DNA of 64,000 nt. Source: an uncultured Planctomycetaceae bacterium (GTDB lineage: Bacteria > Planctomycetota > Planctomycetia > Pirellulales > Lacipirellulaceae). The DNA lies in the NCBI GenBank assembly GCA_964353155.1, contig CAYGUP010000012.1:4828-68827 (forward strand), in the 5' to 3' direction. Shown here piece by piece: positions 19,217 through 35,891 of the stretch (the stretch's first letter is position 1; each line of letters opens with the position of its first letter). Both the position numbers and the translations under genes were made by a program. The notes under the pieces were generated by a model. That model did not search any database. It was not told where the DNA came from and saw only the letters and a program-made list of their open reading frames with translations.

Positions 19217-20473
19217 GTGCCCCGCTACTTCTTCTCGCTGTTCTGCCTCGTCCCGCTGGCCCTCGGCTGTGCCCCCACGGCCTCGACCGGCGCGGATGTC
19301 GACTCTGCCGAAGTCGCTTCTGCCGACGCGGCCGCAACGGCCGAGGACGCCAGCGAATCGGCCTCCGATGACGGGATGCTCACGATCGGCTCGACCGCCC
19401 CGCGGCTCGACGTCTCGCATTGGTACCCAACCGAACTAGAAGACGCCGAGCCGATCACCCAGCTCGGCTCGGGCGAGGTGCATGTCGTCGAGTTTTGGGC
19501 GACCTGGTGCGGCCCCTGCGTTTCGAGCATCCCGCACATCAACGAGATGCAAAAGAGCTACGGCGATCGGGGCGTGACCTTCGTGAGCATCACACGCGAA
19601 GACACCGAAACCGTCGAACCGTTCTTCGAGCGAACCGTCCGCGGCGAAGAGGGAGACGACGCCCCCATCTACGGCGACCTGATGAAGGCCTACCGCGTCG
19701 GCTCGGACCCCGACGGATCGACCAACCGCGACTACATGGAGGCCGCCGGTCAGAACGGCATCCCGTGCGCCTTCATCGTTGGCAAGACCGGCAAGGTCGA
19801 GTGGATCGGGCACCCGATGGCGATGAGCGAGATCCTCGAGCGCGTCGTCGAAGACCAATGGGACCGCGAAGCTTACGCGAAAGAATTCAAAGCCAAAAAG
19901 CGGATGGAGGCTTTGATGCAACAGATCGGGCGAGCCTTCCAGCAAGGCGATGCCGAGAAGGCCAACGAGCTGCTCGACAAGATGCTGGCCGAGTCCGACG
20001 ACCCGAGGATGAAGGCACGCGTCGCGGGGATCCGCGAGCAGATGAGCCTCCAGATGTTCTATACCAAGCTCGGCGAAGACCCCGAGAAAGACCTCGACGA
20101 ACTCCGCACCCGCGTCGCCGCCTTTGAAGGTGACCTCGAACAGATCAATCGTTTCGTCTGGCCGTTCGCCGCGATCAGTGCCCAAGGGGGCGACGTCAGC
20201 GACGACTTGCTGAAGCTCGCGGCGGAGCTGACCGAAGCGGCCCTCGCCGAAACGCCCGGCGTCGAGGACGGCAACGTGCTCGACACCCTCGCCCACCTCT
20301 ACCACGAGCAAGGCGACCTGCCCAAGGCGATCGAGCGGCAACGCCAAGCGGTCGCGGCCGACAATCCGCCGGGGATACAACAACAGCTACAGAGTTATCT
20401 TGATCAACTGTTGGTCGAGCAGAAAAGCCTCGAAGAGCCGGCCGAAGAGGAAGCCACCCCGGAAGCAACGTGA
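19217..20473 (+). CDS. TlpA/redoxin-family lipoprotein with C-terminal TPR-like region
   Basis: Lipobox LALGC; VVEFWATWCGPC; GIPCAFIVGKTGKVEWIGHP; DTLAHLYHEQGDLPKAIERQ. A perfect TATAAT lies at 19152-19157 upstream. Confidence 0.88.
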   Translation: MPRYFFSLFCLVPLALGCAPTASTGADVDSAEVASADAAATAEDASESASDDGMLTIGSTAPRLDVSHWYPTELEDAEPITQLGSGEVHVVEFWATWCGPCVSSIPHINEMQKSYGDRGVTFVSITREDTETVEPFFERTVRGEEGDDAPIYGDLMKAYRVGSDPDGSTNRDYMEAAGQNGIPCAFIVGKTGKVEWIGHPMAMSEILERVVEDQWDREAYAKEFKAKKRMEALMQQIGRAFQQGDAEKANELLDKMLAESDDPRMKARVAGIREQMSLQMFYTKLGEDPEKDLDELRTRVAAFEGDLEQINRFVWPFAAISAQGGDVSDDLLKLAAELTEAALAETPGVEDGNVLDTLAHLYHEQGDLPKAIERQRQAVAADNPPGIQQQLQSYLDQLLVEQKSLEEPAEEEATPEAT

Positions 20474-21303
20474 TGGACCGGCTGCGATCGGGCGCATTTC
20501 AAGCGATCGGATGCCTCGCTATGCTGGCCGGCCTCTCGTTGAGCGTCGCTGCGGTTCGGGCGGAGGCCTCCCTCGATATCCGACCGGCCGCCGAAGGAGT
20601 CTTCGTTGGCCCGCTGCCGAGCGGCGACGACTGGAAGGCCCTGCGCGAGCGAGGCATCCAGACCGTCGTCGGCGTGGACGGGCTGCCCCCCGATGTCGAT
20701 GCCGCCCGCACGCACGGTTTGCGTGTCGTCCATATCCCCATCGGGTACGACGGGATCGATCACCACGCCGCGGGCCAACTGACCCGGGTCGCCCATGAAC
20801 TGCCCCGCCCGATCTATGTTTGCTGCCACCACGGCAAGCACCGCGGCCCCGCGGCGGCGGCCCTTGTGTGCCGAGCGGCCGGCTTGCTCGATGAAGCCGG
20901 CGCGATCCAGTTGCTCCAAGGTGCCGGCACCGATCGCCGCTACGCCGGCCTCTGGCGCGATGTCCGTCGGTTCCAACCACTCGACAACAACGCCGAGCTC
21001 CCCGAACTGTCGCCGCGATCAGCGGTCTCGCCCCTCCGGCTGGCCATGAGCCAACTCGATCGAGCCTGGGACGCCCACCAAGCTGCCGCAACCGACCAAC
21101 AACGCCGCGAGACGCACCTACTGGTCCGCGAAGCCCTCAAAGAATCCCGCCGAGCCGCGGCCGCTAAGCCAAAAACCCCAACGGCGATGATCGAACGGTT
21201 CGACCACCAGCTCGCTGGCTGGTCGAATCCCAAGAGAACAACGAAGCCAACTCAGGAGCCGGGACAAAGCTGCCTCGACTGCCACGAACGCTTCCGCGAC
21301 TAA
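20470..21303 (+). CDS. Secreted phosphatase-fold (CX5R) protein fused to a C-terminal CxxCH heme-c motif
   Basis: Signal peptide; VCCHHGKHRG P-loop; helical C-terminal part ending SCLDCHERFRD; GTGA overlap with the upstream gene. Confidence 0.75.
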   Translation: MMDRLRSGAFQAIGCLAMLAGLSLSVAAVRAEASLDIRPAAEGVFVGPLPSGDDWKALRERGIQTVVGVDGLPPDVDAARTHGLRVVHIPIGYDGIDHHAAGQLTRVAHELPRPIYVCCHHGKHRGPAAAALVCRAAGLLDEAGAIQLLQGAGTDRRYAGLWRDVRRFQPLDNNAELPELSPRSAVSPLRLAMSQLDRAWDAHQAAATDQQRRETHLLVREALKESRRAAAAKPKTPTAMIERFDHQLAGWSNPKRTTKPTQEPGQSCLDCHERFRD

Positions 21304-21376
21304 CTCAGCAACACGCCGGCGCCGCGCGTGACTCGCCTGGCTTCAATACACCACGCGGGTCGTCTAGCCTTATCCC

Positions 21377-21745
21377 ATGCCCAACTGGCTCTCCAACCTG
21401 TTCGATGGCTTCGAGCGGACGCCGCTGTGGTTGGAGCATGCGCCGTGGTGGGCCGCGGCGCTCTGGTTATTCGCTGTCGGCGGGTGCGTTGGCAGCTTCT
21501 TGAATGTGGTCTCGCTCCGCGGCAAGCGGGGCGAGGACATCGTCTTCAAGCCGAGCGGCTGCCCGGTCTGCGGCCATCGCATCCGCCGGCGGCACAACCT
21601 GCCGATCGTTGGCTACGTGCTGCTCCGTGGCCGCTGCTACGACTGCAAGACGCCAATCCCCAGCCGATACTTCCTCTGGGAGTTGGCCTTCGGCGTGTTG
21701 TTCGCCGTGGTCGGGATGTGGCTGGTGGGCCGCTACGTGCGATAA
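21377..21745 (+). CDS. Stand-alone prepilin peptidase N-terminal Zn-binding domain
   Basis: GGCVGSFLNVV...SGCPVCGHRI..NLPIVGYVLLRGRCYDCKTPI; stops after the next TM helix, with no catalytic A24 domain. Confidence 0.8.
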   Translation: MPNWLSNLFDGFERTPLWLEHAPWWAAALWLFAVGGCVGSFLNVVSLRGKRGEDIVFKPSGCPVCGHRIRRRHNLPIVGYVLLRGRCYDCKTPIPSRYFLWELAFGVLFAVVGMWLVGRYVR

Positions 21746-21829
21746 GCCGCGGTTGGGGAGAAACCACCAAGCGGGTTAGACTGTGGCTCGGTTTCTCGCC
21801 CCTCGTCCCTAAGCCCTAGCTCCTCATCT

Positions 21830-23239
21830 ATGCGTCTCACCTTCCACGGGGCGGCCGGCACGGTCACCGGCAGCAAGTACCTGCTCGAAGCCGACGGCGC
21901 GTCGGTGTTGATCGATTGCGGGATGTTCCAAGGGCTCAAGAAGCTCCGCCAGCGGAACTGGGCCGGCACGCCCTTCAAGGCGGGCGAGCTCGATGCCTGT
22001 TTGCTGACGCACGCCCACCTCGACCACACCGGCTACCTGCCGCGGGTCGTGAAGGAGGGCTTCAACGGCCCGATCTTCTGCACGCCCGGCACGGCTAAGC
22101 TGGCCGAGCTAATCATGCTCGACTCGGCGAAGATCCAAGAGTACGACGCCGCCTACGCCAACAAGAAGGGCTTCAGCAAGCACAAGCCGGCGTTGCCGCT
22201 CTACACCGGGCAAGACGTGCTGACCACCGTCAAAAATTTCCGCGAAGTCGGCCGCAACGACTGGGTCCACATCGCCGGCCCGATCCACGCCAAGTGGCAC
22301 GACGCGGGCCACTTGCTCGGCTCGAACCTGATCGAGATCGAAGTCCGCGAGGAGGCCAAGACGACGCGCCTCGTCTTCTCCGGAGACATCGGCCGCTACG
22401 ACGGCCCCCTCTACCACGACCCGACACCCCCACCCGAGTGCGACTACCTGATCTGCGAGAGCACCTACGGCAACCGCAACCACCCGGATGTCGATCTGCC
22501 CGAAGCCCTCGCCGAGGTCGTCCATCGCGGCATCGAGCGGGGCGGCGTGATGCTGATGGCCTCGTTCGCCGTCGGCCGCGCGCAGCAGCTCATCTACCTG
22601 CTGCAAGTTCTCAAGTGCGCGGGCAAGATCCCCGACCTGCCGATCTACCTCGACAGCCCGATGAGCGTCGACGCCACGAAGATCTACCGCGAGCACTGCG
22701 AAGACCACGACCTGTCCGAAGCCCAGCTATGCGGCAAGGAGAGCCCCTGCTCCGTGGGCGATCGCCCCGTGCTGGGCGGCGACGCCGTGCACCTCTGCAA
22801 GACGGTCGATGAGTCGAAGGGGCTCAACAACGTGAAGGGCCCGGCGATCATCATCAGCTCCAGCGGCATGATGACCGCGGGCCGGATCGTGCATCACTTG
22901 AAGAAGCGGCTGCCCGATCCCTCGACCACGGTCATCCTCGGCGGCTACATGGCGGTCGGCACCCGCGGCCGCCGCCTTGAGCAGGGTGAGAACCCGATCC
23001 GGATGCACGGCCAGGAGATCCCGGTGAAGGCCGCCATCGAGAAGGTCCCCGGCCTCTCCGGCCACGCCGACCGCGACGGCCTGTTGCAATGGCTCGGCCA
23101 CCTCAAGACCCCGCCCAAGCAGACCTTCCTGACCCACGGCGAACCCGACAGCGCCGCCGCCCTCGCCGAAACGCTCCGCGACGAAAAGGGCTGGCACGTC
23201 ACGGTGCCGGATATGGAGGAGTGGCACGAATTGGATTGA
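21830..23239 (+). CDS. MBL-fold beta-CASP RNA-processing metallohydrolase
   Basis: GTVTGSKY, LIDCG, THAHLDHTG, AGHLLGS, ESTYG, SSSGM, LSGHAD, THGE. Confidence 0.93.
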   Translation: MRLTFHGAAGTVTGSKYLLEADGASVLIDCGMFQGLKKLRQRNWAGTPFKAGELDACLLTHAHLDHTGYLPRVVKEGFNGPIFCTPGTAKLAELIMLDSAKIQEYDAAYANKKGFSKHKPALPLYTGQDVLTTVKNFREVGRNDWVHIAGPIHAKWHDAGHLLGSNLIEIEVREEAKTTRLVFSGDIGRYDGPLYHDPTPPPECDYLICESTYGNRNHPDVDLPEALAEVVHRGIERGGVMLMASFAVGRAQQLIYLLQVLKCAGKIPDLPIYLDSPMSVDATKIYREHCEDHDLSEAQLCGKESPCSVGDRPVLGGDAVHLCKTVDESKGLNNVKGPAIIISSSGMMTAGRIVHHLKKRLPDPSTTVILGGYMAVGTRGRRLEQGENPIRMHGQEIPVKAAIEKVPGLSGHADRDGLLQWLGHLKTPPKQTFLTHGEPDSAAALAETLRDEKGWHVTVPDMEEWHELD

Positions 23240-23276
23240 GTGGACGCCCAACCGACTTCTACCCAAAGAGGAACCG

Positions 23277-23495
23277 ATGCTACGGAAAGCTCTTGCGGTC
23301 GTCTTCTTGTTACTCGCGGTGTCGAGCGCGATCAACTTCGCCAATCGTCAGGAGGCTCTCGATTTTAGTTCTCCTAGGCAGGCTGGATCGGCCCTCGCTG
23401 TTCTGATGTTGCTTGCCATATCACTCCGACTGTGGAGCCGCTCATCCAGGCGGCCACGGAGGGACACCGACCGCGAGTCGTCGGACCTGGACTGA
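23277..23495 (+). CDS. Small two-TM hypothetical membrane protein
   Basis: 72 aa, two hydrophobic segments, upstream GAGGA, fits the gap between flanking genes. Confidence 0.55.
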   Translation: MLRKALAVVFLLLAVSSAINFANRQEALDFSSPRQAGSALAVLMLLAISLRLWSRSSRRPRRDTDRESSDLD

Positions 23496-23600
23496 CTCCC
23501 TTTGCGCCTTCGCAGCTTTGCGTGAGACTCTGTTAAGCCGCCGCTAGGGTCCGGACGACGCGGCTCGCCCTCACCGCCCACCCCTACTGCCAACTCTCTC

Positions 23601-24545
23601 ATGCCGCAAAACAAGCCCTCCAAGCACATCGGTTCCGAAGCCCAGAAGCCGGCCGAGCCGATGGACGTCGCGCCGGATTTCAACCTCGACGCCCACCAGG
23701 GCGGGCTGCCGCCCGAGGTCGAGGAGAACCGGCAGGCGATCATGGAGTCGCAGGCGTATATCCTGCCGGAGGCCGATACCGAGTGGCTCAAGGAGTCCGA
23801 GATGCGGCCGGTCCGCATGCAGCTCGAACTGCAGAAGACCGAGATCCTGCTCCAGCGTGAGAATATCGAGTCGACGGTCGTGGTCTTCGGCGGCACGCAG
23901 ATCGTCCCCAAGGAAGAGGCCGAGGAACGCCTCGCCAAGGCCCAGGCCGAACTCGACGCCAACCCCAACGACCACCAAGCCCAACGCGGCGTGGTGCGGG
24001 CCGAGGCCCGGATGAAGAAGGTCCGCTTCTACGAGGAGTGCCGCGCGTTCGCCAAGCTCGTCAGCAGCCGCTGCCAGATCGACGGCAAGTGCGAGTACGT
24101 GGTCACCACGGGCGGCGGCCCGGGCATCATGGAGGCCGGCAACCGCGGCGCGTTCGAGATCGGCGCCAAGTCGGTCGGCCTCAACATCGAGTTGCCGCAC
24201 GAGCAAGAGCCCAACCCGTACATCACGCCGGAACTCTGCTTCCAGTTCCACTACTTCGCGATGCGGAAGTTCCACTTCATCCTGCGTGCCGCGGCGTTGG
24301 TGGTCTTCCCGGGCGGGTACGGCACGCTCGACGAGCTGTTCAACTGCCTCTGCCTCCGCCAGACCGGCCGCATGCAAGCGATCCCGATCATCCTGTACGG
24401 CAAAGAATACTGGGACTCGGTCCTCAACTTCCAATCCCTTGCCGACGAGGGCGTCATCGCCGACGAGCACCTCGACCTCATCTCCTACGCCGACACGCCC
24501 GAAGAGGCCTGGGGCCTGATCGCCAAGTTCCATAACGTGGAGTAG
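23601..24545 (+). CDS. LOG family (TIGR00730-like) nucleotide phosphoribohydrolase
   Basis: TGGGPGIMEAGNRGA, GLNIELPHEQEPN, FHYFAMRK, FPGGYGTLDELF. Confidence 0.92.
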   Translation: MPQNKPSKHIGSEAQKPAEPMDVAPDFNLDAHQGGLPPEVEENRQAIMESQAYILPEADTEWLKESEMRPVRMQLELQKTEILLQRENIESTVVVFGGTQIVPKEEAEERLAKAQAELDANPNDHQAQRGVVRAEARMKKVRFYEECRAFAKLVSSRCQIDGKCEYVVTTGGGPGIMEAGNRGAFEIGAKSVGLNIELPHEQEPNPYITPELCFQFHYFAMRKFHFILRAAALVVFPGGYGTLDELFNCLCLRQTGRMQAIPIILYGKEYWDSVLNFQSLADEGVIADEHLDLISYADTPEEAWGLIAKFHNVE

Positions 24546-24563
24546 TTGAATACGGGAGAAGCA

Positions 24564-25019
24564 ATGTCGGAAGCGCAGCTAATCACTGGTGCCGAGAAAC
24601 TCACATCGGTTTTTGGCTACTGGCCTTCGTTTCACGACGCTGAGATTGTCTGGATCAAAATCGATCGTTCTGCTGGCTCTGATTCTGACGATCGCGGGCC
24701 AACGCTGGACACCTTGATTCATGCATTCGAGATGACCAAAGAGATTGATTCCAACGGCTACTATTGTTTGCGGAACCATGTCTTAGTGCATCTGCGATTT
24801 CATGAGGCAGTCGAACTGAGTCTTGAAGGGTTCAATCATCAGAATGTTCTTATGGAGTTGACCATCTCAGATTTGACAGAGAGGCAACTTGAGCGGGTCC
24901 GATGGCGCGTTCATTTCGCATCGTCTTGGGGCGTTGAATCGACCTTTAACTGCTATCACGCTGAAGTCATTTCTGTAACGCCTTGTGACAAGCATGGAAC
25001 GGCATTACCAGAGTGGTAA
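24564..25019 (+). CDS. Imm50-like immunity protein (orphan)
   Basis: FGYWPSFHDAEI N-terminus and LSLEGFNHQNVL resemble Imm50 proteins (recognition from memory); visibly AT-richer than neighbours; GGGAG RBS before ATG 24564. Confidence 0.7.
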   Translation: MSEAQLITGAEKLTSVFGYWPSFHDAEIVWIKIDRSAGSDSDDRGPTLDTLIHAFEMTKEIDSNGYYCLRNHVLVHLRFHEAVELSLEGFNHQNVLMELTISDLTERQLERVRWRVHFASSWGVESTFNCYHAEVISVTPCDKHGTALPEW

Positions 25020-25105
25020 ATGCTGGCACCGCCGGCAAGCTTGACGACTCGCACTCGTCAGGCAATGAAGAAGGGGTCACCAGCCCCTTCGATCGAGGCC
25101 TTGGC

Positions 25106-26722
25106 ATGGGCGGAATCAGGCGGATCGGCTTCGCGGCGGCTCTCTTTCTGATCGGCAACGCCCCGGCCTCGGCCACCGATCGGATCGTTGGCACCACCGG
25201 CGGGCTCTCCGTCGCGCTCGCCGCGGCGGTGCCGGGCGACACGATCTCGCTGCTGCCGGGGGTCTACGACGGCGGGCATTTCCGCGCCGGGCTGACCGAC
25301 GTGACCATCCGCCGGCAGCCGGGTTCCGCGGGCGAGGCGATCCTCCGCGGCGGCGTGAACGGCATCCAGCTCTCCGACGCCACGCGGGTCACGATCGATG
25401 GGCTCACCTTCGAGGCCCAGACCGGCAACGGGCTGAACATCGACGACGGCGGCACGTTCGCCTCGCCCTCGACCGAGATCACGCTCCGCAACCTCACCGT
25501 CCGCGACATGGCGGCCACCGGCAATAACGACGGCATCAAGCTGTCGGGCGTCACCGGCTTCACGATCGATCGCGTCCGCGTCATCGACTGGGGCGCCCGC
25601 GGCAGCGCGATCGATCCGGTCGGGTCGCACCGGGGCGTGATCCGGGACTCGCACTTCCTCAGCAACGTGCTGACCGACAACGGCTCGGTCATCCGCCCCA
25701 AGGGGGGCAGCAAGGCGATTCAAGTCCAAGGCAACTTGATCGAACTCCCCGCAGGAGCAGGCCGGGCGTTGCAGGCCGGCGGCTCGACGGGCGATGCCTT
25801 CTTCCGCTTCGTTGATGGGGACTCGGGCTACGAGGCCAACGAGATCCGCTTCGAAGGCAACCGCGTGATCGGCGGTGCTAGCGCGGCTCATTGGGTCAAC
25901 ATCGATGGCGGCGAGTTCCGCTACAACGACTTCCGCAACCCGTCGCGTTGGGCGATGCGGATACTCAACGAGCGGCAGGGCGACCCGATTGTCGATACGC
26001 AAAACGGCGTCTTCACCGACAACTATCTCCGCTACGACGGCGACTCCTGGTCGCGGGCGGTAAACATCGGCGCGGAGACCGACACCGGCTCGTTCACCTT
26101 CGCTCGCAACGGCTGGCTGAACACCGCCGACCCCACCTCGGCGGGCTCGACCCCCTCGCTGCCGGCCGCCGAAGCCGATGGCCAGTACGGCGTCGCGGCT
26201 CCGTGGGACGCCGACGAGCCAATGCGTTGGTCGTTCGACTGGGGCGAATGGATCGTGCCGCTCGACGCCGCCGATACCACGCTCCCGGTGACCAACCACC
26301 AAGAGCTGCTGCTCGCCACCCCCGGGGCGGACGGCCTCTTCGATCCCGCGGCTGCCGATCCCCTTTCAGGCGACTGGCTCCTGCGGCCGGCCTCGGAAGA
26401 CTTAGCCACCAACGCCTTCGAGCCGGCGGTGCTGATCCGGCCCGCCTCCTGCGGCATCTGCCAGACGGTCGCCGGCGACTACGACCGCAACGGCCTCGTC
26501 GACTCGGCCGATCGCTCCCTGTGGGCTCAGCAGTACGGCTACGCCGGCGACGGGGCCTTGGCCGATGGCAACGGCGATGGCCGCGTCGATGCGGCCGACT
26601 ACACCGTTTGGCGTGACGCGATGGTGCCAGCCCCCGCCGCCGTGATCCCCGAACCGGCCGGGCCGGCTCTCGTTTTGTTCGCGGCGATGGGTGTTGCCGG
26701 CAGGCCCGAGCGATCACGATAG
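25106..26722 (+). CDS. PEP-CTERM protein with right-handed beta-helix (pectin-lyase-like) domain and dockerin-like repeat
   Basis: Signal peptide; PGDTISLLPGVY, NGIQLSDA, DGIKLSGV beta-helix repeats; GDYDRNGLVD...ADGNGDGRVDAADYTVWRD; IPEPAGPALVLF. Confidence 0.85.
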   Translation: MGGIRRIGFAAALFLIGNAPASATDRIVGTTGGLSVALAAAVPGDTISLLPGVYDGGHFRAGLTDVTIRRQPGSAGEAILRGGVNGIQLSDATRVTIDGLTFEAQTGNGLNIDDGGTFASPSTEITLRNLTVRDMAATGNNDGIKLSGVTGFTIDRVRVIDWGARGSAIDPVGSHRGVIRDSHFLSNVLTDNGSVIRPKGGSKAIQVQGNLIELPAGAGRALQAGGSTGDAFFRFVDGDSGYEANEIRFEGNRVIGGASAAHWVNIDGGEFRYNDFRNPSRWAMRILNERQGDPIVDTQNGVFTDNYLRYDGDSWSRAVNIGAETDTGSFTFARNGWLNTADPTSAGSTPSLPAAEADGQYGVAAPWDADEPMRWSFDWGEWIVPLDAADTTLPVTNHQELLLATPGADGLFDPAAADPLSGDWLLRPASEDLATNAFEPAVLIRPASCGICQTVAGDYDRNGLVDSADRSLWAQQYGYAGDGALADGNGDGRVDAADYTVWRDAMVPAPAAVIPEPAGPALVLFAAMGVAGRPERSR

Positions 26723-26749
26723 AGGGCTGCTCCACTACCCTCCCCCGCC

Positions 26750-27928
26750 GTGAACTCGATCGCCGTGCCCCGCCTCGCCCTGCTGCTCGTTGCTTGCCTC
26801 CTGCTCACCGCCTCAGCGTTTCCTGCCCGATCGGCCGAGCGTGTGATGATGGGCTACTACGCCACGTTCGGCGACCTGCCGGTGGAACGGATCCCCTGGA
26901 ACCGGCTGACGCACGTCGGCCACGCCTTCCTGCGACTCGACGCCGAGGGCAAGCCGGTCAAGACCGACGCGATGCCTAACGCCGCCCTCACGGCCGACGG
27001 TCGCAAGAACGGCGTGCCGGTGCTGATGACCGTCGGCGGCGGTGTCACGGTGAAGGGCCTTGAGAAACGGCTTGTCGATGAGGCGGCAACCCAAGCCCTC
27101 ACGACCGAGTTGATCGACCTGCTCGCCGCAGGCCGGTACGACGGCATCGACCTCGCCTGGGAGTACCCCCGGAACGCCACGACCCGCACGGCCCACGCCC
27201 GCCTGCTGGCTGCGTTGCGTCGCGGCCTCGATGCCCGCGCCAAGGAGACAAACCGCGCGACTCCCTACCTGCTGACGGCGAGCCTCAGCCCGACCGAGTT
27301 CCTCGGCGAGTGGGTCGATACCAAAGCGGTCGCGCCACTGGTCGATTGGTTCAACGTGATGACCTACGACATGAGCGGGCCGTGGTCGCGTCTGGCCGCC
27401 CACCACGCCCCGCTATTCGCGTCGTCGAAAGACACGGAGGACGCCGGCCGGAGCGTCGTCGCGGCGATGCGATACTGGGAGCAGCAACGGCGCGTACCGA
27501 AGGCGAAGCTCGTCGTCGGCGTGCCGCTCTTCGGCCGCGTGATGCCCGCCAAAGAGCCGTACCAGACGCTCGACCCGGAGCAGGCTCGGCGTCACCGCGT
27601 GATGGCGTTCGCCGCCATCCGCAAGCTCGCCGGCGAGGGCTGGCCCGCCGAGTGGGACAACGAAGGCCGCACCCCGTGGCTGAGCAAGCCCGAGCCGAAA
27701 ACCGAGCCCAAGCCGGGCCTCTCGCCGCTCACGCCGATCGACGATCAAGCCGACGACGGCCCGGTCCTCATCGGCTACGACGACCGCAACTCGGTCCACA
27801 TGAAGACCACCTGGTCGCGCGAGCAAGGCTACCGCGGCATGTTCTTCTGGGCGATCCACCAAGACCAAATGCCCGACCGACGCCACTGGCTGCTGGATGC
27901 GGCAAACAAAGCGTGGCCGGCGGAGTGA
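26750..27928 (+). CDS. GH18 chitinase-like protein with variant catalytic motif
   Basis: Signal peptide; LTHVGHAF, YDGIDLAWEYP, FNVMTYDMSG, KLVVGVPLFG, GMFFWAIHQD. Confidence 0.88.
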   Translation: MNSIAVPRLALLLVACLLLTASAFPARSAERVMMGYYATFGDLPVERIPWNRLTHVGHAFLRLDAEGKPVKTDAMPNAALTADGRKNGVPVLMTVGGGVTVKGLEKRLVDEAATQALTTELIDLLAAGRYDGIDLAWEYPRNATTRTAHARLLAALRRGLDARAKETNRATPYLLTASLSPTEFLGEWVDTKAVAPLVDWFNVMTYDMSGPWSRLAAHHAPLFASSKDTEDAGRSVVAAMRYWEQQRRVPKAKLVVGVPLFGRVMPAKEPYQTLDPEQARRHRVMAFAAIRKLAGEGWPAEWDNEGRTPWLSKPEPKTEPKPGLSPLTPIDDQADDGPVLIGYDDRNSVHMKTTWSREQGYRGMFFWAIHQDQMPDRRHWLLDAANKAWPAE

Positions 27929-28095
27929 GCCGATTGCTCGCCCAAGCCACACTTCACCCGGCTGCACGAGAGGCCACGGGCCAGCCGCCCGCGACCGATG
28001 AGGGCCACTACCTTCACACGTAGCGATTTCACCGTGAAGCTGCGCCGTACGAGGAAGACTCTGCGGTTTTTACCCACGCTCTTCGCAGCAAATGT

Positions 28096-28153
28096 GGGTC
28101 ACTCATTTGTACTTAGCGGACCTCTTCTAAAATGCGTCGAACGATGAAGCCGA
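28096..28153 (+). promoter_or_regulatory. 58-bp repeated promoter-like element, copy A
   Basis: 52/58 identical to the reverse complement of 35648-35705; contains TTTGTA-N16-TAAAAT. Confidence 0.65.
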
Positions 28154-28289
28154 GGCGTCATCGCGGAGGAAGTTTCGAAGCACCAGAGGGTCACGCCTAT
28201 CGCACTTACGAAGATGAAGGAATCGGGCTTGAGCAGCATCGTCCGGTTGTCGCAGGTTAGCCTCGCGATATGCGTCGCAGCGACTTAGA

Positions 28290-28601
28290 ATGCCGGCTAT
28301 GCCGCTATCCGAAAGACTTGTTGAACTTGAAGATGCCGTCTGCGACGAACGGACGTTTCTCGACTTCCTTAACGCACTTGCCCAGGAGCGGCTGGCGGAT
28401 GAAGAGGCCGAAAGCAAGACGCCGAGCAACCCATATGGCCCCAGTCATGCTGGTTGGGAGTGCTCTACAATAGGAACCTACCTTGATGCAGCCAGTGCAT
28501 GGGCTGAGTCCTCTATAGATGGCCTTCCGTTGATGCCGAAAGAGACGAATTCTTGGAAGCGTATAGCTCAGATACTTCATGCAGCCAAGGCTTTCGAGTA
28601 A
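28290..28601 (+). CDS. Small acidic hypothetical protein (immunity-like, tentative)
   Basis: 103 aa, lower GC; RTFLDFLNAL...GWECSTIGTYLDAASAW...SWKRIAQILHAAKAFE recalls small accessory proteins of polymorphic-toxin loci; family not confirmed. Confidence 0.6.
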   Translation: MPAMPLSERLVELEDAVCDERTFLDFLNALAQERLADEEAESKTPSNPYGPSHAGWECSTIGTYLDAASAWAESSIDGLPLMPKETNSWKRIAQILHAAKAFE

Positions 28602-28613
28602 CTCGCTGCCCGC

Positions 28614-28789
28614 GGGTGGCACGGACAGTCGGCCGCGAGGGACTCGGTGATCGGCTGAATCGAGTTCGGCCGATTGTCCGTGGGCGTCAGCCCAAGAGGC
28701 ATGCCGATTGGCCTCCCGTCGCCGAGCGACACCGACACGTGTCCGGGCCAAGTCTTAAGAAAGACGATGCGTATCGCGGACAAGTGTCG
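28614..28789. repeat. Pair of GGGTGG-footed REP-like hairpins
   Basis: Arms cacggacagtcggcc (28620-28634) / ggccgattgtccgtg (28668-28682), 14/15; and cgacacgtgtccg (28733-28745) / cggacaagtgtcg (28777-28789), 12/13. Confidence 0.7.
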
Positions 28790-28952
28790 CTGCTACCCCT
28801 GGCTAGGATGACGCCTCGGCGTGAAGCTTCCACGCCGATTGGGTACTTCTCTTGCTGAGCTCAAACGCGATCGCCGGGGACGGTCTGCGAGAGGTCCGGG
28901 TTTTGATTAGAATGTGGGAGCTCCGGTCCGAACCCCCGCACGAGACACCAAG

Positions 28953-30368
28953 ATGAACGAATCGGCTTCCCGCTCGTCGATCACACGGCGCGACCTGCTC
29001 AAGACCTCGGCGCTCGCCGCTTCGTCTGGAGTATTGGCTCCCGGGCTTGGGTTCGGCGCGGCGAAGATGGCGTCGCCCAACGAGCGGCTGAATGTCGCGT
29101 TCGTGGGGATCGGTGGGAAGGGAGACCACAACCGGACCATGCTGCAGAAGACCGGTCTCTGCAACGTGGTGGCGTTGTGCGATATCGACTTGGAGGGACC
29201 GCGGACGCTCTCGGCTCGGATCGCCAACGGCGACGCCCCCGTGCCCGAGGGCAAGACGGCCGCGCAGTTCGTCCCGATCGATACGAAGGCGCCGTACTTC
29301 ACCGACTTCCGGGTGATGCTGGACAAGATGGCGGACCAGATCGATGTGGTCGTGGTCTCGACGCCCGACCACACGCACTTCCCGGTCGCGATGGCGGCGA
29401 TGGCCTTGGGCAAGCACGTCTATGTCGAGAAGCCGCTCGCGCACACCTTCGGCGAGTGCCGCCGGCTGATGGAGATGGCCGATCGTTCCGGTGTCGTGAC
29501 CCAGATGGGCAACCAGGGGCATTCCTCGGCCAACTTCACGCAATACAAAGCCTGGACCGAAGCGGGCGTCATCCGTGATGTCACGCGCATCACCGCGTAC
29601 ATGAACAAGGGCCGGAGGTGGCACGGGTGGGGGCGCAAGGTCGAAGCCTACCCGAGCGAGCCGATGCCGAAGCACCTCGCGTGGGACACGTGGACCGGCC
29701 CGGCGCCCGAGCACCCGTTCAGCAAGCGGCTCCACCCCGGAAACTGGCGGTCTTGGTTCGACTACGGGAGCGGCGCGTTGGGCGATTGGGCTCCGCACAT
29801 CTTGGACACGAGCCATCGCTTCCTGAAACTCGGCCTCCCGGAGAGGGTCACCGCCGCTCATCGCGACGGGGCGAACCCGCTGGTCTATCCGCAGGAGACC
29901 ACGCTGAGTTTCCAATTCCCCGAGCGCGAGGGGATGCCCGCCTGCGAAGTGGCTTGGTACGACGGCACCAGGAACCAGCCGGAGTTCGATGCCGACCTCG
30001 GCGCGGTCAACACGCAGAGCCCCGGCAAGGTGATCTACGCCGGCGATCGGGTCTTCCAGGGCGCCTCGCACGGCAGCACGCTGTGGGTCCTTTCGGGCGA
30101 CAAGGATTCCCTGCCCGAGTACGAGAAACGAGTTCCGAACCACTGGATGAACTTCATGCTGGCCTGCAAGGGCGAGGCCGAGTCGTCCTCGCCGTTCTCG
30201 GTCGGCGCCCCGCTGACGCAGGTGCTCAACCTCGGGATGATCTGCCAGCAGCTCGGCGGGACGGTCGAGTTCGATCGCGAGACCGAACAGATCACCAATA
30301 ACGAGGAAGCCAACGCCCTGCTCGACCCCACGCCACGCAAGGGCTGGGAGTCGTACTACCGGATGTAG
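28953..30368 (+). CDS. Tat-exported Gfo/Idh/MocA oxidoreductase
   Basis: ITRRDLLK Tat motif; VGIGGKG, STPDHTH, HVYVEKP, QMGNQGHS, GALGDWAPHILD. Confidence 0.92.
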   Translation: MNESASRSSITRRDLLKTSALAASSGVLAPGLGFGAAKMASPNERLNVAFVGIGGKGDHNRTMLQKTGLCNVVALCDIDLEGPRTLSARIANGDAPVPEGKTAAQFVPIDTKAPYFTDFRVMLDKMADQIDVVVVSTPDHTHFPVAMAAMALGKHVYVEKPLAHTFGECRRLMEMADRSGVVTQMGNQGHSSANFTQYKAWTEAGVIRDVTRITAYMNKGRRWHGWGRKVEAYPSEPMPKHLAWDTWTGPAPEHPFSKRLHPGNWRSWFDYGSGALGDWAPHILDTSHRFLKLGLPERVTAAHRDGANPLVYPQETTLSFQFPEREGMPACEVAWYDGTRNQPEFDADLGAVNTQSPGKVIYAGDRVFQGASHGSTLWVLSGDKDSLPEYEKRVPNHWMNFMLACKGEAESSSPFSVGAPLTQVLNLGMICQQLGGTVEFDRETEQITNNEEANALLDPTPRKGWESYYRM

Positions 30369-30384
30369 CGGCCCGCCTCGGCCA

Positions 30385-31944
30385 CTACTCCGAGGCGAAG
30401 GTGATTTTCACGGCGTAGGCGTGCTGGCACGGGGCCTCCTCGGGCATCGTGACCAGCAGCCCGTCGGCGTGCGGCTCCCAATCGAGCGGGTCGGACGAAC
30501 CGAGCAGCTCGACCGAAGCGATTGGCCCGCCCGGCATCTCCGGCGAGGGTTTGAAGAGCTCCGTGACGAACTCGAACTTGATCGGCTCGCCATCCTTCGG
30601 CCAACCCATCACCAAGGCATACAGCACGCCTGGCTCGCCGTCGCGGCTCGGTTTGGCGGTGTAGCGGATGTCTTTGGCGGTGAGCTTCGATCGCTTGTCG
30701 TGCGCGCCGATCTCACGATGGCCCTCGCCGTAGACGGCCCACGGCCGCGTGCCGTAGATCGCTTCGCCGTTGATATCGAGCCATTCGCCGACCTCGACCA
30801 GCACGTCGGTCGCCGGTTGATCGAGCGTGCCATCGGCGCGGATCGGAATATTGAGCAACAGGTTGCCGTTCTTCGAGACGATATCGATGAGCTTATCAAC
30901 AACGAGGCCCGGCTCCATGTACGGCACGCTCGGGTTGTAGCCCCACGAGCCGATCGAGTCGTCCGTCTGCCACGGCTCGGGCAGGATGCTGCTCGCCTTG
31001 CCGCGCTCGTAGTCGAGCGTCGCGATGCCGTTGGCGTACAGGCCCTGCCAGGGGCGCTGCTTGATGCACATGACGCCTTCGGGGCGTTCGTTGTAGAAGT
31101 GCGAGATCACGCCCAGGCCGGTCCGGCCCTGGTCCTCGCCGCGGAAGGGGACCGCGCAATCGAAGTAGAGCAGGTCCGGGTCGTAGTCTTCGACCAACTG
31201 ATCGACCCGCTTCGCCCACAGCTCTCGCCACGCGGCGGGGGCCTTGAACGGGGCGCGCGGGTGCGTGCTCTGCCCGTCGTTGGCCGGGTAGAGGCCGGGG
31301 GCTTTCCCCGCGGCGCCGTCGTACGGAACGCCCTTGAGCGGGCCGCTCGTGTCGGCCTGGTTCGCCGTGTTCAGCCAACTGTAATTCCGCGACAGGTGCG
31401 TGGTGACGCCGAACCGGAGCCCCGCCTTGAGGGTCGCTTCGCGCCAGGCTTGGATGAGGTCGCGTTTCGGCCCCATCTTCACGGCGTTCCATTCATGGTG
31501 CTTCGAGTCCCAGAGGTCGAAGTTGTCGTGGTGCACGGCGCACGGGGTGAAGTACTTGGCCCCGGCTTGCTTGAACAAGGCGACCAAGGCTTCCGGGTCG
31601 AACCGCTCGGCCTTCCATTGCGGGATGAAGTCGGCGTAGCCGAACTCCGAGGGGTGGCCGTAGGTCTTCACGTGGTAGTCGTAGTCCGGCCCGCCCTCGA
31701 TGTACAGCTTGCGGGCGTACCACTCGCCCCGCTCGGCGACCGAGTAGGCCCCCCAGTGCAAGTAGATGCCAAACTTGGCGTCGCGGAACCACTCCGGGCA
31801 GGTGTAGCCGCTTAGCGATTCGATGGTGGGCTCGAACGCGCGGGCGGCGGTCTCGGCGGCCATCAACGGGCGAGGGCCGCCGAGCAGCATCGAGCAAGCC
31901 AAGAGAACAAGGCCGAGTCGTGGCCGGGTGGTCGTGTGGAGCAT
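30385..31944 (-). CDS. Alpha-L-fucosidase (GH29)
   Basis: PEWFRDAKFGIYLHWG, AVHHDNFDLWDS, LLYFD, WQTDDSIG, IVSKNGNLLLNI, NGEAIYGTRPW. Confidence 0.93.
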   Translation of the reverse strand: MLHTTTRPRLGLVLLACSMLLGGPRPLMAAETAARAFEPTIESLSGYTCPEWFRDAKFGIYLHWGAYSVAERGEWYARKLYIEGGPDYDYHVKTYGHPSEFGYADFIPQWKAERFDPEALVALFKQAGAKYFTPCAVHHDNFDLWDSKHHEWNAVKMGPKRDLIQAWREATLKAGLRFGVTTHLSRNYSWLNTANQADTSGPLKGVPYDGAAGKAPGLYPANDGQSTHPRAPFKAPAAWRELWAKRVDQLVEDYDPDLLYFDCAVPFRGEDQGRTGLGVISHFYNERPEGVMCIKQRPWQGLYANGIATLDYERGKASSILPEPWQTDDSIGSWGYNPSVPYMEPGLVVDKLIDIVSKNGNLLLNIPIRADGTLDQPATDVLVEVGEWLDINGEAIYGTRPWAVYGEGHREIGAHDKRSKLTAKDIRYTAKPSRDGEPGVLYALVMGWPKDGEPIKFEFVTELFKPSPEMPGGPIASVELLGSSDPLDWEPHADGLLVTMPEEAPCQHAYAVKITFASE

Positions 31945-32026
31945 CGTAAGCGTGGGTCGGTGTTGTCGTGTGGGTTCGCTAGGTCGCCAGCCCCTCATAG
32001 TAACACGCCGGCCCGGATTGATCCGA

Positions 32027-32428
32027 TCACTCCTCTTCGAGGACCCAGGTCAGCCGCTCATCACGCCAGAAGACCCAGCCGCCGGAGAGGTCGCCATCGT
32101 CGATTTGTTGATCAATCGCGTGCCAAGCGGCAAGCTTATCGGGCGTGGCATTCTCGATCACGACCGCGGCGAGCATCCCGGTACGGGTCCACGTGTAGCG
32201 GCCGCCTAGCGGCGTGGGGCCGTGGTCCCGGCTGGTCGGCCACGCCCCGGTGGCTCGCTCTTGGTGGTCGGCGGCGTCGGCGATGTGGCGGAGCCCCTCG
32301 ATCGTCGCGGCGAGGTCGGCCGAGTCGATTCGGTTGCCGCCACGCGACAGCGATAGAGCGATCCCGGCGACGATCGCCAGGAGCGTCAGCAGCAGGGGCG
32401 TGCGGGTTTGAGCGGAGCGGCGGGCCAT
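32027..32428 (-). CDS. Pilin-like hypothetical protein
   Basis: N-terminal hydrophobic helix, TPLGGRYTW and IDQQIDDGDLSGG, but no G|F cleavage site. Confidence 0.55.
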   Translation of the reverse strand: MARRSAQTRTPLLLTLLAIVAGIALSLSRGGNRIDSADLAATIEGLRHIADAADHQERATGAWPTSRDHGPTPLGGRYTWTRTGMLAAVVIENATPDKLAAWHAIDQQIDDGDLSGGWVFWRDERLTWVLEEE

Positions 32429-32492
32429 GCAGCAAAGGTAGCTCACGGCGCACCAAGCTGATGAGATCGCCCGGAGGCCGTACAATCGGCCC

Positions 32493-33440
32493 ATGGCATC
32501 CAAAGCATCCTGGCTGATCGGCGTGGACGAGGCGGGCTACGGACCGAACCTGGGGCCGTTGGTCGTCGGCGCCACCGCTTGGCGACTGCCTGCGGGGGGG
32601 GACCTGGACGAGTTGCTCGCCGACGCGGTGATCCGGACGCCCGTGGCGGGCGACGCGCGTTTGCTGATCGCCGACTCGAAGGCGGTCTATCAGCCGGGCG
32701 GCGGGCTGACGAAGCTCGAACGCGCCGTCTACGCCGCAACCGGCCCGCCCGATCGTTGGACGAGTCTGGTCGCGACACTCGACGCCGACGCCACCAACCA
32801 ACGGGCCAGCCTCCCGTGGCACACGGGGTTCGATCCTGCGCTGCCGATCAACGCCGATGCCACCGACCTCGCCGACGCCACCAATCAACTAAAAGCGGCG
32901 TGCCAAGCGTCCGGCGTCACGCCCCCGCGGCTGAGAGCGAGGCTCGTCTATCCGGGGCGGTTCAACGAGTTGGTTGAGCGAGACGGGACGAAGGGGGCGG
33001 CGTTGTCGTCGGTTTCGATCGGTTTGGCTCGCTCGCTGTACGACGAGGTCGTCGGCGAGGGCGAGCCGTGTGCGTTCGTCTTCGACAAGCACGGCGGCCG
33101 CAACCGTTACGGCGAGTTGATCCAGGAGCACTTCGACGACGCGTGGGTCGAGATGCGTGAGGAGTCGCGACCGGTGAGCCGGTACCGCGTCGGTGAGCGG
33201 CTGACGTTTCGATTCCGCTCGAAGGGCGAGGAGGAGCTGCCCGTGGCGCTCGCGTCGATGGCCGCCAAGCTGCTCCGCGAGTTGTCGATGAAGGCCTTCA
33301 ACGACTACTGGCTTAAGCAGGTCCCCGGCGTGAAGCCGACGGCCGGCTATCCGGTCGACGCCAAGCGATTCAAAGCCGCGATCGAGGCAAAGCAGGCGGA
33401 GCTTGGGATCGCGGATAAGGTCTTGTGGCGATCTCGATAA
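32493..33440 (+). CDS. Divergent RNase HII-like protein
   Basis: LIGVDEAGYGPNLGPLVV, IADSK, VFDKHGG, VALASMAAK, GYP. Confidence 0.8.
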   Translation: MASKASWLIGVDEAGYGPNLGPLVVGATAWRLPAGGDLDELLADAVIRTPVAGDARLLIADSKAVYQPGGGLTKLERAVYAATGPPDRWTSLVATLDADATNQRASLPWHTGFDPALPINADATDLADATNQLKAACQASGVTPPRLRARLVYPGRFNELVERDGTKGAALSSVSIGLARSLYDEVVGEGEPCAFVFDKHGGRNRYGELIQEHFDDAWVEMREESRPVSRYRVGERLTFRFRSKGEEELPVALASMAAKLLRELSMKAFNDYWLKQVPGVKPTAGYPVDAKRFKAAIEAKQAELGIADKVLWRSR

Positions 33441-33456
33441 ACCCGAGGAGCTAACG

Positions 33457-33954
33457 ATGCTCATCTATCTTGCACGCCACGCCTGGGCCGGCCACTACGG
33501 CGACCCCCCGCCCGCCAACGGCTCGTGGTCGGACGACTCGCAACGGCCGCTCACAGCGGAGGGCGTCGAGCGGTATGGGCGGGTCGTCGGGGCGCTCGCC
33601 GAGCGAGGCTTCCAACCGGAACGCCTGATCGCCAGCCCGTACACGCGCTGTTGGCAGACCGCCGAGCTCATCGCCGAAGCGGTCGGTGTCTTGCCCGAGC
33701 CGTTCGAGGGCCTCGAGCCGGGTGCCCGTCTGGAGCCGTTGCTCGAATGGACCCGTCGCATCCATGCGGCGTCGGTCTGCTGGGTCGGGCACAACCCGGA
33801 TTGCGAGCGGCTGCTGGCGGAGCTGATCGGCGAGGGCTGGGCGTCGATCCGTTTCGCGAAGGGCTCGGTCGCCGCGGTCCGCTTCGAAGGCCCCCCCGCC
33901 GCTGGCGAGGGGACGCTGGTCTGGCACGCGACCGCGAAGCTGCTGGGAGTTTAG
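33457..33954 (+). CDS. sixA: Phosphohistidine phosphatase SixA
   Basis: IYLARHA, QRPLTAEG, ASPYTRCWQTA, VGHNP; GAGGAG RBS before ATG 33457. Confidence 0.88.
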   Translation: MLIYLARHAWAGHYGDPPPANGSWSDDSQRPLTAEGVERYGRVVGALAERGFQPERLIASPYTRCWQTAELIAEAVGVLPEPFEGLEPGARLEPLLEWTRRIHAASVCWVGHNPDCERLLAELIGEGWASIRFAKGSVAAVRFEGPPAAGEGTLVWHATAKLLGV

Positions 33955-34067
33955 AGCGGGCGGCGACGTGACGCAGGTCGGCAGGCCACGGCTCGACACC
34001 CAGGTCGACGCCTCATTTGCAGGTTGGCCAGACTCGACGCTTCCTTTTCCGGGGCCAGCATGGAGGA

Positions 34068-35399
34068 TCAGCCCGGTGAGCGCCAGCACCACCGTCGCCT
34101 CGCGAACTGTAGCAACGCAGGAGCTCCCAAGATCAGGCCAGCCGGCTCTGGTACGCTCAGCGGCTCTCCGAGAAAGTTGTCACGCCATACCGTGTAATCC
34201 GCGGCGTCAACCACGCCATCTCCGTTGCCGTCGCCCCAGGTAAACACGCTGACAGTGTCGCCATAGCGGGATTTCCAAGTTTCGTAGTCGCCGGCATCGA
34301 CCGAACCGTCGAAGTTGAAGTCTCCTGCTAGCACGCGACTCACCCTTACGCGGGCGTCGGCGGCAACGTATCCATCGGGGGAAAGCGGATCGCTGTCGCT
34401 AAGGCTTAGCGAGAACTGGCTGCCGTCGCGCAGGACGCCCGAAAGCGTTCCCGAACGCTCGGCGATTGTATGCGTCCCAACGTCGAGTGGTGAGCCGTTC
34501 ACTGAGAACTCATATCCCTCAATGTACACATTGCTCCTAGGCATGAGGGTAATCGCTCCGCCGAACTCTCCACCGTAGGCGCGGAGCCCACCATAGACGG
34601 TCATGCCGGGTTCAACCGACCCGCTAATGACGTCAAAATACCCGTCTACCGTCAGTCCAGTGCCTACCGATCCGCCGTGCATCCGGATGTAGCCGTTAGG
34701 CGCCACGTAAGCATCTGGACCGATCAAACCGCCGCTAACTGTAGTGGATGTATCGGTGCCGAAGCGGAAGCGACTTCCGATCTCGCCGTCGACAACGGTC
34801 ATTCGCGTGAAGCCACCGCTGATGTAAGAATCTGCGCCGAGGGTCCCTCCCGTCATGGTGATATCAGCGCCGCCTAAGGGCGATGATCCTATAGGGGCAA
34901 TCAACTCGCCAACTGTCCCTCCGGCGATTGTGATATCGCTTCCTCCCGACCAGACGCCTAAAACGTCAACGACCCCCCCGCCAACCACGGCGCTCCCTTC
35001 GTATGCATCGAGTTGACGGACACGTCCTCCGTTGACGTTGACCAGGGCACCGTAGGAGGTGCTGACCTGTCTGGCTGTCCCACCGCTGATGTTAATCTCG
35101 CTGCCCTCGATGGCATTGAGACCCCACTCGATTGCACCCCCCATCAGGTTGACGACGACATTGCTGTTCACTTCCCCGTGCAAGCCAGCATTGAAGGTGT
35201 GTCCAACCGAACCGCCGTCGAAGACGTTTAGCGTAGTGTTTGATCCGATCGACTCGTTGTCACCGATTGAGGTTGGTGGAGCGTTGATTATGCCCGGGGG
35301 AAGAGTTTGTGCGGTGGCATAACCAGCTGTCGCTAATGAAGAAAGAGCTACAGACAAAGTGGCGAAGACCTGAGAATAGGCCCTTGGCAAGATGGTCAT
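34068..35399 (-). CDS. Lower-GC PEP-CTERM protein with Gly-rich beta-solenoid-like repeats and dockerin-like repeat
   Basis: Signal-like N-terminus; repeated (I/V)NxSGG units; GDFNFDGSVDAGDY...GDGNGDGVVDAADYTVWRD; SVPEPAGLILG. Confidence 0.82.
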   Translation of the reverse strand: MTILPRAYSQVFATLSVALSSLATAGYATAQTLPPGIINAPPTSIGDNESIGSNTTLNVFDGGSVGHTFNAGLHGEVNSNVVVNLMGGAIEWGLNAIEGSEINISGGTARQVSTSYGALVNVNGGRVRQLDAYEGSAVVGGGVVDVLGVWSGGSDITIAGGTVGELIAPIGSSPLGGADITMTGGTLGADSYISGGFTRMTVVDGEIGSRFRFGTDTSTTVSGGLIGPDAYVAPNGYIRMHGGSVGTGLTVDGYFDVISGSVEPGMTVYGGLRAYGGEFGGAITLMPRSNVYIEGYEFSVNGSPLDVGTHTIAERSGTLSGVLRDGSQFSLSLSDSDPLSPDGYVAADARVRVSRVLAGDFNFDGSVDAGDYETWKSRYGDTVSVFTWGDGNGDGVVDAADYTVWRDNFLGEPLSVPEPAGLILGAPALLQFARRRWCWRSPG

Positions 35400-35647
35400 G
35401 GGAGTATCGCAACTTCTGGGGATACGAAGTGTGGGCATGCCCAAATCATTAGCGGCATCAGCTGCTCCAGCCACTTTCTTCGGGGGGGGCGTATTCCGCA
35501 TAGATGAGAATGATTGCAACATGGTAGCCGTCAGTCTCATTTGAAGCTCTTCCCAGCAGTGGGGCGTTCTTCAGCCACCCCACGTTCCTCCCGTTCAAGC
35601 CACATGCAATAGCCCGTGGCAGGGGGCTGTCGCATCGGAAAATCGTG

Positions 35648-35705
35648 TCGGCTTCATCGTTCGACGCAATCTACCAGAGGCCCGCTAAGTGCAAATGAGT
35701 GACCC
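35648..35705 (-). promoter_or_regulatory. 58-bp repeated promoter-like element, copy B
   Basis: Minus strand reads gggtcactcatttgcacttagcgggcctctggtagattgcgtcgaacgatgaagccga; TTTGCA-N16-TAGATT with TG at extended -10 spacing. Confidence 0.65.
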
Positions 35706-35789
35706 TCCGGGGAGACTTGGCGGCGGGCACCCTCTGAGCTGAGTGGCTGGCTGGCGTAACTCCCAGATCGACGTCTCTTGGACATCAGC

Positions 35790-35891
35790 TCACTTGCCAC
35801 CCTTCTTCTTCAGCTTGAGAAACACAGCCGTACCGGCGATCCCCCCGATAACACCGCAGATAAGTGGCCCCAAGATGTCATTGAGTTCCAT
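35790..35891 (-). CDS. 33-aa single-TM peptide with basic tail (below the ORF-track size cutoff)
   Basis: Translated by hand: MELNDILGPLICGVIGGIAGTAVFLKLKKKGGK*; AGGGG RBS 5 nt upstream. Confidence 0.6.
   Translation of the reverse strand: MELNDILGPLICGVIGGIAGTAVFLKLKKKGGK

Follow-up and report, generated by a model that had tools for sequence, protein, structure and literature searches.

A conserved 58-bp sequence as the probable boundary motif of a family of small accessory-gene cassettes in planctomycetes

The DNA analyzed here, referred to as the window, is a 64-kb segment (64,000 nt) of a planctomycete chromosome with a GC content of 65%, and its closest protein matches lie in the Lacipirellulaceae, near strain MalM25 and Botrimarina. 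Its gene content includes a 2491-aa type I polyketide synthase (KS-AT-DH-ER-KR-ACP-TE; 6232-13707) and, near the gene for this enzyme, a phosphopantetheinyl transferase gene (2351-3004). An earlier note on this DNA, made from the sequence alone, had pointed to a 58-bp promoter-like element occurring twice in opposite orientations, and alignment showed that the repeat is real: 28096-28153 (+) and 35705-35648 (-) are identical at 52 of 58 positions, with sharp borders and unrelated flanks. A repeat finder returned the same pair (58 nt, 90% complementary, 7494 nt apart) as the best inverted repeat in the window. When either half of the 58-mer was searched for with up to three mismatches, only these two sites were found in the 64 kb, for which shuffled sequences give an expectation of 0-0.02 matches, and an nhmmer profile of the 58-mer (hereafter L) detected no further degenerate copy within the 64-kb window. 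The count of two given in the note therefore holds for the window but not for the genome, since more copies are present on metagenome contigs of the runs that contain the window.

The copy at 28096-28153 stands at the left end of cassette A. It is made up of a core (28096..28119, +; GGGTCACTCATTTGTACTTAGCGG), which contains the -35-like hexamer TTTGTA at 28106-28111, and an inner module (28120..28153, +; ACCTCTTCTAAAATGCGTCGAACGATGAAGCCGA), which contains the -10-like hexamer TAAAAT at 28128-28133. Outside the core lies an outer extension of the left end (28073..28095, +; CCCACGCTCTTCGCAGCAAATGT) that is common to other copies of the A-type subfamily, and on the cargo side of the inner module lies a degenerate second core-like sequence (28184..28208, +; AGAGGGTCACGCCTATCGCACTTACGAAG), which nhmmer detected weakly and which blastn aligned, also weakly, with the L core of locus L031. 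The cargo gene (28290..28601, +; GC 53%) encodes a DUF7660 protein (Pfam PF24693). This gene is missing in a related strain, ~95% identical to the window, contained in the biofilm-metagenome run X5, in which sequencing depth was 0 over 28160-28567. Beyond the cargo is a 3' repeat region (28611..28840, +) with two palindromes that have 16-nt arms (28620-28682 and 28730-28792) and are unrelated to each other. The region, whose right boundary is at 28840, is multi-copy in X5 (depth up to 31 vs. about 5-6 for single-copy sequence), several X5 contigs stop at 28840, and it behaves as a separate repeat family joined to the right side of cassette A.

Next follows a conserved block (28841..33990, no strand assigned) in which Pfam recognized a GFO/IDH/MocA oxidoreductase, a GH29 fucosidase, an RNase HII-like protein, and a His_Phos protein. 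On its far side lies cassette B, which is read on the minus strand. Its L (35648..35712, -) consists of the 58-mer (35705-35648) and a 7-nt outer extension, with the outer boundary at 35712 placed by a junction in X5, and carries the -35-like hexamer TTTGCA at 35695-35690 (-) and the -10-like hexamer TAGATT at 35673-35668 (-). The cargo gene (34068..35540, -; GC 58%), also missing in the X5 strain, encodes a secreted dockerin-domain protein (Pfam Dockerin_1), and past it lies a second motif, R (33998..34028, -; GGCCAACCTGCAAATGAGGCGTCGACCTGGG; nhmmer E = 3.9e-8). Since the dockerin part of this cargo is similar to that of a resident gene at 2966-3853 (81% identical over 58 nt; repeats at 3083-3140, 34176-34233, and 34266-34323), part of cargo B has relatives in the same genome. 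The dockerin part of the resident gene also matches the 3' end of a beta-helix gene (3086-3229 vs. 26474-26617). Just outside cassette B, in DNA of 59% GC, are a possible gene for a transmembrane miniprotein of 33-52 aa (35790-35948; MELNDILGPLICGVIGGIAGTAVFLKLKKKGGK) and a 107-nt palindrome (35974-36080) with 19-nt arms, GGGTGGCC...GGCCACCC.

Much of what the earlier note had said of these surroundings was confirmed. The hexamers are spaced as described (TTTGTA-N16-TAAAAT at 28106-28133 and TTTGCA-N16-TAGATT at 35695-35668), and both L copies face inward, toward the DUF7660 gene on the plus strand and the dockerin gene on the minus strand, in cargo regions of lower GC (57-58.5% vs. 64-68% in the flanks). 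Pfam found neither a transposase nor an integrase domain in the ~50 open reading frames of the 64-kb window, and no direct repeat indicative of a target duplication was seen at the outer boundaries of L and R. The palindromes reported near the two copies are indeed present (28620-28682, 28730-28792, and 35974-36080), but they are mutually unrelated in sequence, and the suggested link to REP elements was not supported, as the palindromes also differ in place, lying inside cassette A in one case but outside cassette B in the other.

Compared with other sequences, L proved to be multi-copy, with unrelated flanks and with copies in several genera of the Lacipirellulaceae. At least 6-9 further copies lie on metagenome contigs of the same population and of the related strain: among Logan contigs of the biofilm-metagenome runs (X1-X5), nine different contigs in X1, six in X2, and at least five in X5 matched L, again with unrelated flanks. 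Scanning one genome per species for the exact core yielded four more copies (L001-L004), distributed among Adhaeretor mobilis (1), a Bythopirellula MAG (1), and a Planctomycetota MAG (2), while another, L031, was found independently by profile and has one change in the core. The core (consensus GGGTCACTCATTTGyACTTAGCGG) is identical or nearly so in Adhaeretor, Bythopirellula, the Planctomycetota MAG, and one Logan contig; the invariance of its 24 nt is partly by construction, as copies were found with an exact pattern of 19-20 nt. The inner module is kept in the cassette B copy, L002, and L004, and only ACGwTGA is left of it in L001 and L031. Conversely, contigs of X1 and X2 contain the inner module without the core (matching 28116-28151), half-copies on Logan contigs have breakpoints at 28111-28119, some of them keeping nothing past 28114-28116, and one contig has two L copies in tandem, 16 nt apart. 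Other copies in X1, X2, and X5 begin to match at 28066-28085, i.e., 10-30 nt upstream of the 58-mer. A tRNA, phage, or plasmid origin of L was rejected: L had no match among plasmids, and pattern hits in viral and JGI-metagenome sequences were low-GC chance matches without flank similarity.

The R motif was first noticed as a partner arm of L. An X5 contig reads from 35712 through CT to 33999 and on into 33999-34027, past the dockerin gene, and the same 18-nt R sequence was found at the far end of the L031 cassette. When an HMM built from these two arms only was used to search ~190 kb, the next-best matches fell in L001, L004, L002, and L003, each on the same strand as L and right after the cargo; aligned, the motif reads (G)CTAACCTGCAmAGGAGGCGTCGACCTTGG. 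Eight copies of L and seven of R were readable in sequence, and both motifs are conserved across genera of 52-65% GC. The polarity L-cargo-R is strict in six of seven loci, where R lies 0.6-1.7 kb downstream of L on the same strand, the cassettes measure 0.64-1.7 kb, and one to three low-GC accessory genes stand between the motifs (GC 53-58% vs. 64-68% in the flanks). Cassette A is the exception: no clear R occurs on its own strand, and its sole R-like match, a weak one, is on the minus strand (28817-28804). R was not found in the L-free loci (L013-L030, L032-L034) or in ~90 kb of the relatives' genomes.

The cargo differs from cassette to cassette. Besides the DUF7660 protein of cassette A and the dockerin protein of cassette B, it comprises an 82-aa protein, Imm35, and a RING-like protein in L002; SnoaL_2 in L003; a 171-aa protein of no known family in L004; a 141-aa protein, DUF7660, and a 137-aa protein in L031; and, in L001, a 168-aa secreted protein encoded on the strand opposite to L. 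Among the DUF7660 homologues, only the one at 83% identity, in L031, has L, which there stands ahead of a three-gene cassette, and homologues of up to 79% identity sit in other contexts without L or R. The possibility that L is an obligatory 5' region of DUF7660 genes was rejected, as at least 20 homologous loci are without it.

Sites without an insert were found in relatives. The site between the His_Phos and GH18 genes is empty in five genomes or contigs (L038, L039, which is MalM25, and L041-L043), where the two genes are convergent and their stop codons lie 0-1 nt apart, giving TGA(N0-1)TCA. In the window the site is filled. At the same site, L040 has a 555-nt insert (11455-12009) with diverged L-like and R-like ends and a small low-GC open reading frame of 92 aa without known family. 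The right end of this insert may repeat ~15 nt of the His_Phos 3' end (p ~0.02), a duplication that was not significant in the window. In the X5 strain, which is without the DUF7660 and dockerin genes, the site is occupied by an A-type cassette with other cargo. A single intergenic site is thus occupied by different cassettes in different strains and empty in others, and the boundary at 33990 is common to different cassettes at this one site in two strains. Three further genes, encoding the fucosidase (30385-31998), an SDR protein (36171-37028), and a 473-aa protein (37198-38619), are missing from the relatives' locus. Elsewhere in the window, a low-GC Imm50 immunity gene (24546-25019) lies exactly between the stop of LDcluster4 and the start of the beta-helix gene; this stretch of 480 nt is missing in the X5 strain (joint 24541->25022), a gene of 353-419 aa takes its place in more distant relatives, and the ends of the Imm50 gene show no L or R motifs.

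Synteny with the relatives (L038, L039 [MalM25], L040, and L041-L043), whose gene order matches that of the window on both sides (17147-27928 and 38868-46267), revealed that the block 28841-33990, which runs from the oxidoreductase through His_Phos, is turned around with respect to its two flanks when compared with five related genomes. This 5.1-kb block is bracketed by cassettes A and B in opposite orientations, with their L ends outermost. The simplest origin of the inversion would be recombination between the two inverted 58-bp copies of L or between cassette ends. Since the X5 strain has an un-inverted junction, the inversion is a recent event that arose at strain level. An X5 contig also joins 33990 to the reverse complement of 28840; this joint was rejected as proof of an inversion of the block alone, because an A-type cassette at the ancestral site explains it equally well. 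Switching of an invertible segment within the population was likewise rejected, as runs X1-X4 contained no alternative joints.

We also examined how the two motifs relate to each other. Immediately ahead of the L core is sequence similar to the center of R in direct orientation, TGCAmAGGnGG(c)GTC(g)AC, and this common block is marginal in significance (p = 0.01-0.06 in four of six cassettes). In inverted orientation, L and R gave a significant match for cassette B only (CTCATTTGCA/TGCAAATGAG, 10-nt perfect, p = 0.003), and L002 and L004 have the short matches TTAGCGG/CCGCTAA. The outer inverted repeats were not significantly specific to their own pair (p = 0.25), and cassette-specific outer inverted repeats as a sign of palindromic targets were rejected for this reason. 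Where R is directly followed by L, as in the X5 contig and L001, the two form an imperfect palindrome of ~70 nt. Single-strand folds of L units, R units, and the R+L junction gave z values of -2.0 to +1.0 vs. shuffles, on a scale on which the canonical attC of L003 itself reaches only -1.3, and the idea that L and R are copies of one hairpin unit was rejected, the folds being no better than shuffles. Because the inverted matches are partial, the outer repeats non-significant, and the folds like those of shuffles, we treat L and R as putative boundary motifs with partial symmetry, rather than as proven terminal inverted repeats or hairpins.

Two readings of L as an expressed sequence were considered. 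A conserved small RNA, which the earlier note had offered as an alternative, was not borne out: Rfam returned 0 hits at the gathering threshold, and RNAalifold on four long copies gave -4.55 kcal/mol with 0 compensatory pairs and no shared structure. Two frames of L give short open reading frames (...GHSFVLSGPLLxCVxR-stop and MxxRVTHLYLADLx-stop), and some of the differences between copies look synonymous. A small ORF or leader peptide was rejected, as L004 is frameshifted and both L001 and one X5 copy are without a start codon; a peptide profile searched against 5.8 billion proteins found only the L003 open reading frame and one chance match.

Among the explanations of L that compete with a cassette boundary, it seems unlikely that L is a conserved promoter or operator of an accessory-gene regulon, served by a regulator or alternative sigma factor and the -10 box, with R unrelated and no role in mobility. 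Such a reading draws on the arrangement TTTGyA-N16-TAnAnT kept in both window copies, on the extended -10-like TGnTAGAwT in the cassette B copy and L002, on the nearest cargo gene, which is co-directional and 100-180 nt downstream of L in six of seven loci, and on a degree of core conservation that would be unusual for the interior of a mobile element. However, a sigma-70 scan called no site at either L copy, the candidate hexamers being below the standard threshold: TTTGTA agrees with TTGACA at three of six positions and the -10-like box matches at four to five of six in both window copies and L002, whereas the box is missing from the core-only copies L001, L003, and L031, and the cargo gene of L001 is antisense to L. 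Sigma-54 and ECF promoters, assessed by eye, were rejected on their spacing and conserved bases. The half-copies and the tandem pair are also unlike a fixed promoter, L is gained and lost together with its cargo at sites that are empty in relatives, and closer DUF7660 homologues are without L. Least probable, in our judgment, is that L and R are passive intergenic repeats, i.e., REP- or MITE-like relics flanking variable regions, in which ordinary recombination, whether homologous or illegitimate, lets genes build up and the repeats do no more than provide inverted homology for inversion. Inverted 58-bp repeats do bracket the inversion, REP dimers with DNA inserted between the partners have been described (PMC3733652), and the Imm50 gene is a strain-specific insertion as well, one without L or R. 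Passive repeats would nevertheless sit poorly with the strict polarity in six of seven loci and the absence of R elsewhere, with the conservation of both motifs across genera of such different GC content, or with a boundary (33990) held in common by different cassettes.

Quite improbable, too, though ahead of passive repeats, is that L and R are the arms of a non-canonical attC, with the cassettes forming a CALIN-like remnant and an IntI-like tyrosine recombinase encoded elsewhere. The hallmarks of attC sites are the boxes R'' (RYYYAAC) and R' (GTTRRRY), with invariant AAC and GTT. R starts with an RYYYAAC-like box (CGCTAAC, GGCCAAC, CCTAAC), retaining AAC in five to six of seven copies; L ends with the near-complement CTTAGCG; R and then L give the ~70-nt palindrome; copies break at the very end of the site, which is where crossovers take place in attC; and the size of the cassettes and the style of their cargo fit. 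In L003, moreover, a canonical attC (GCATAAC...GTTAGCT; 2432-2517; 36.4 bits) comes directly after the SnoaL cargo and borders on the R-like motif, which its R' box overlaps, and chromosomal integrons with taxon-specific attCs exist in Planctomycetes (PMC8352920). Yet with PSSMs of the arms, derived from the published attC model for Planctomycetes (PMC8352920, supplementary data 1), L scored -31 bits as a right arm and R -17 to +0.3 bits as a left arm. All L copies have CTT where R' has a near-invariant GTT; the order L-cargo-R splits the half-sites around the cargo, whereas in an integron an undivided attC comes after the cargo; the folds did not surpass those of shuffles; and the cassettes lie singly between housekeeping genes. 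No Phage_integrase domain (intI) was detected in the ~50 open reading frames of the 64-kb window, and no integrase was visible in the 8 kb examined at L003. The split arrangement, the CTT found where GTT is expected, and the missing intI argue against attC membership, while the adjacency in L003, the AAC box of R, and the near-complement in L keep a non-canonical attC-like mechanism alive.

Comparison with known systems gave partial likenesses in each case. Integron cassettes and CALINs are similar in their small cassettes with variable accessory cargo, sometimes reversed, and in the imperfect palindrome formed by R+L; they are unlike the present family in that L and R fail the Planctomycetes attC model and the cassettes lie singly between convergent housekeeping genes. 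Mobile insertion cassettes (MICs) and cargo-carrying MITEs are IS-derived, transposase-less elements that are mobilized in trans. Short conserved ends, one to few passenger genes, the lack of a transposase, multiple copies with unrelated flanks, and presence or absence between strains are all features held in common with them, but the present family showed no target duplication, its terminal inverted repeat is weak, and the best-conserved bases of L are at the cargo-proximal rather than the outer end. No parent IS with L/R ends was found in the window or the loci examined, and there was no match among plasmids or viral contigs. The pdif modules of Acinetobacter plasmids are bounded by 28-bp XerC/XerD sites. 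These modules would be alike in being without a recombinase of their own, in their short, oppositely oriented sites, in exchange between locations, and in the inversions to be expected; they would be unlike in that L and R seem to have no recognizable dif-like dyad. The Correia elements of Neisseria and REP/REPIN sequences are also short, multi-copy intergenic repeats that supply promoters and take part in rearrangements, but L has no stable hairpin and no GTAG or CGTC tag structure, and in the L/R family genes lie between end motifs that differ from each other. A possible resemblance of the inner module to Tn3-family inverted repeats (CTTAGCG..GAATTCTGCG in L004) was set aside, having received no blastn support among plasmids.

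In outline, the earlier proposal of a portable sequence tied to captured genes has held up: L is multi-copy, crosses genera, has a partner motif, and occurs at sites that are empty in relatives. Two features escaped the note: the copies are inverted repeats on either side of a chromosomal inversion, and a second boundary motif, R, exists. We consider it probable that the 58-mer serves as the boundary, or as the attachment motif, of cassettes that form a non-autonomous family, with promoter activity of the inner module as an optional feature. On this best reading, small accessory-gene cassettes of marine-type planctomycetes, which lack a transposase, have L as their conserved left end. Each cassette would run from the L core through the 34-nt inner module, in some copies, to the cargo and then to R, and would hold between one and three accessory genes but no recombinase of its own. 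Insertion or exchange would be carried out by an enzyme encoded elsewhere, either a transposase or a site-specific recombinase acting on L and R; alternatively, the cassettes may be exchanged by recombination for which L and R serve as portable homology. The inversion may stem from recombination between the two inverted L copies or between cassette ends, and the inner module may contain an inward-facing promoter (TG-n-TAnAAT) that drives the cargo. No autonomous copy with its own transposase or integrase was found in the 64-kb window or the loci examined, and no movement of cassettes was observed, cassette B being fixed in the four runs X1-X4.

A more specific version, which we put forward only tentatively, is that L and R are the attachment sites of an integron-independent system of the Lacipirellulaceae, in which a recombinase encoded elsewhere swaps single cassettes and a promoter built into L would activate whichever cargo has been taken up. 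Cassettes would then be inserted and excised at gene-free junctions between convergent housekeeping genes, and the R-(2 nt)-L junction of the related strain would be that of a circle or a tandem. Measured against the known kinds, the family has the expected copy number and the expected filled and empty sites; of the enzymatic hallmarks that define each kind, it fails some and may or may not share the others. The literature searched contained no description of an L/R cassette family.

Planctomycetes have large and poorly understood accessory genomes, and to our knowledge almost nothing is known of the movement of single genes in these bacteria. Here, a defined pair of motifs marks small cassettes whose cargo includes immunity-type, secreted, and no-known-family proteins. 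Whole genomes can be scanned for these motifs in order to mark out accessory genes, to trace the responsible enzyme through its phyletic co-occurrence with them, and to account for inversions between strains. Should there be a dedicated recombinase, the L/R family would represent a second gene-cassette system beside integrons; if there is none, it would be a clean example of short portable repeats driving both gene exchange and inversion.
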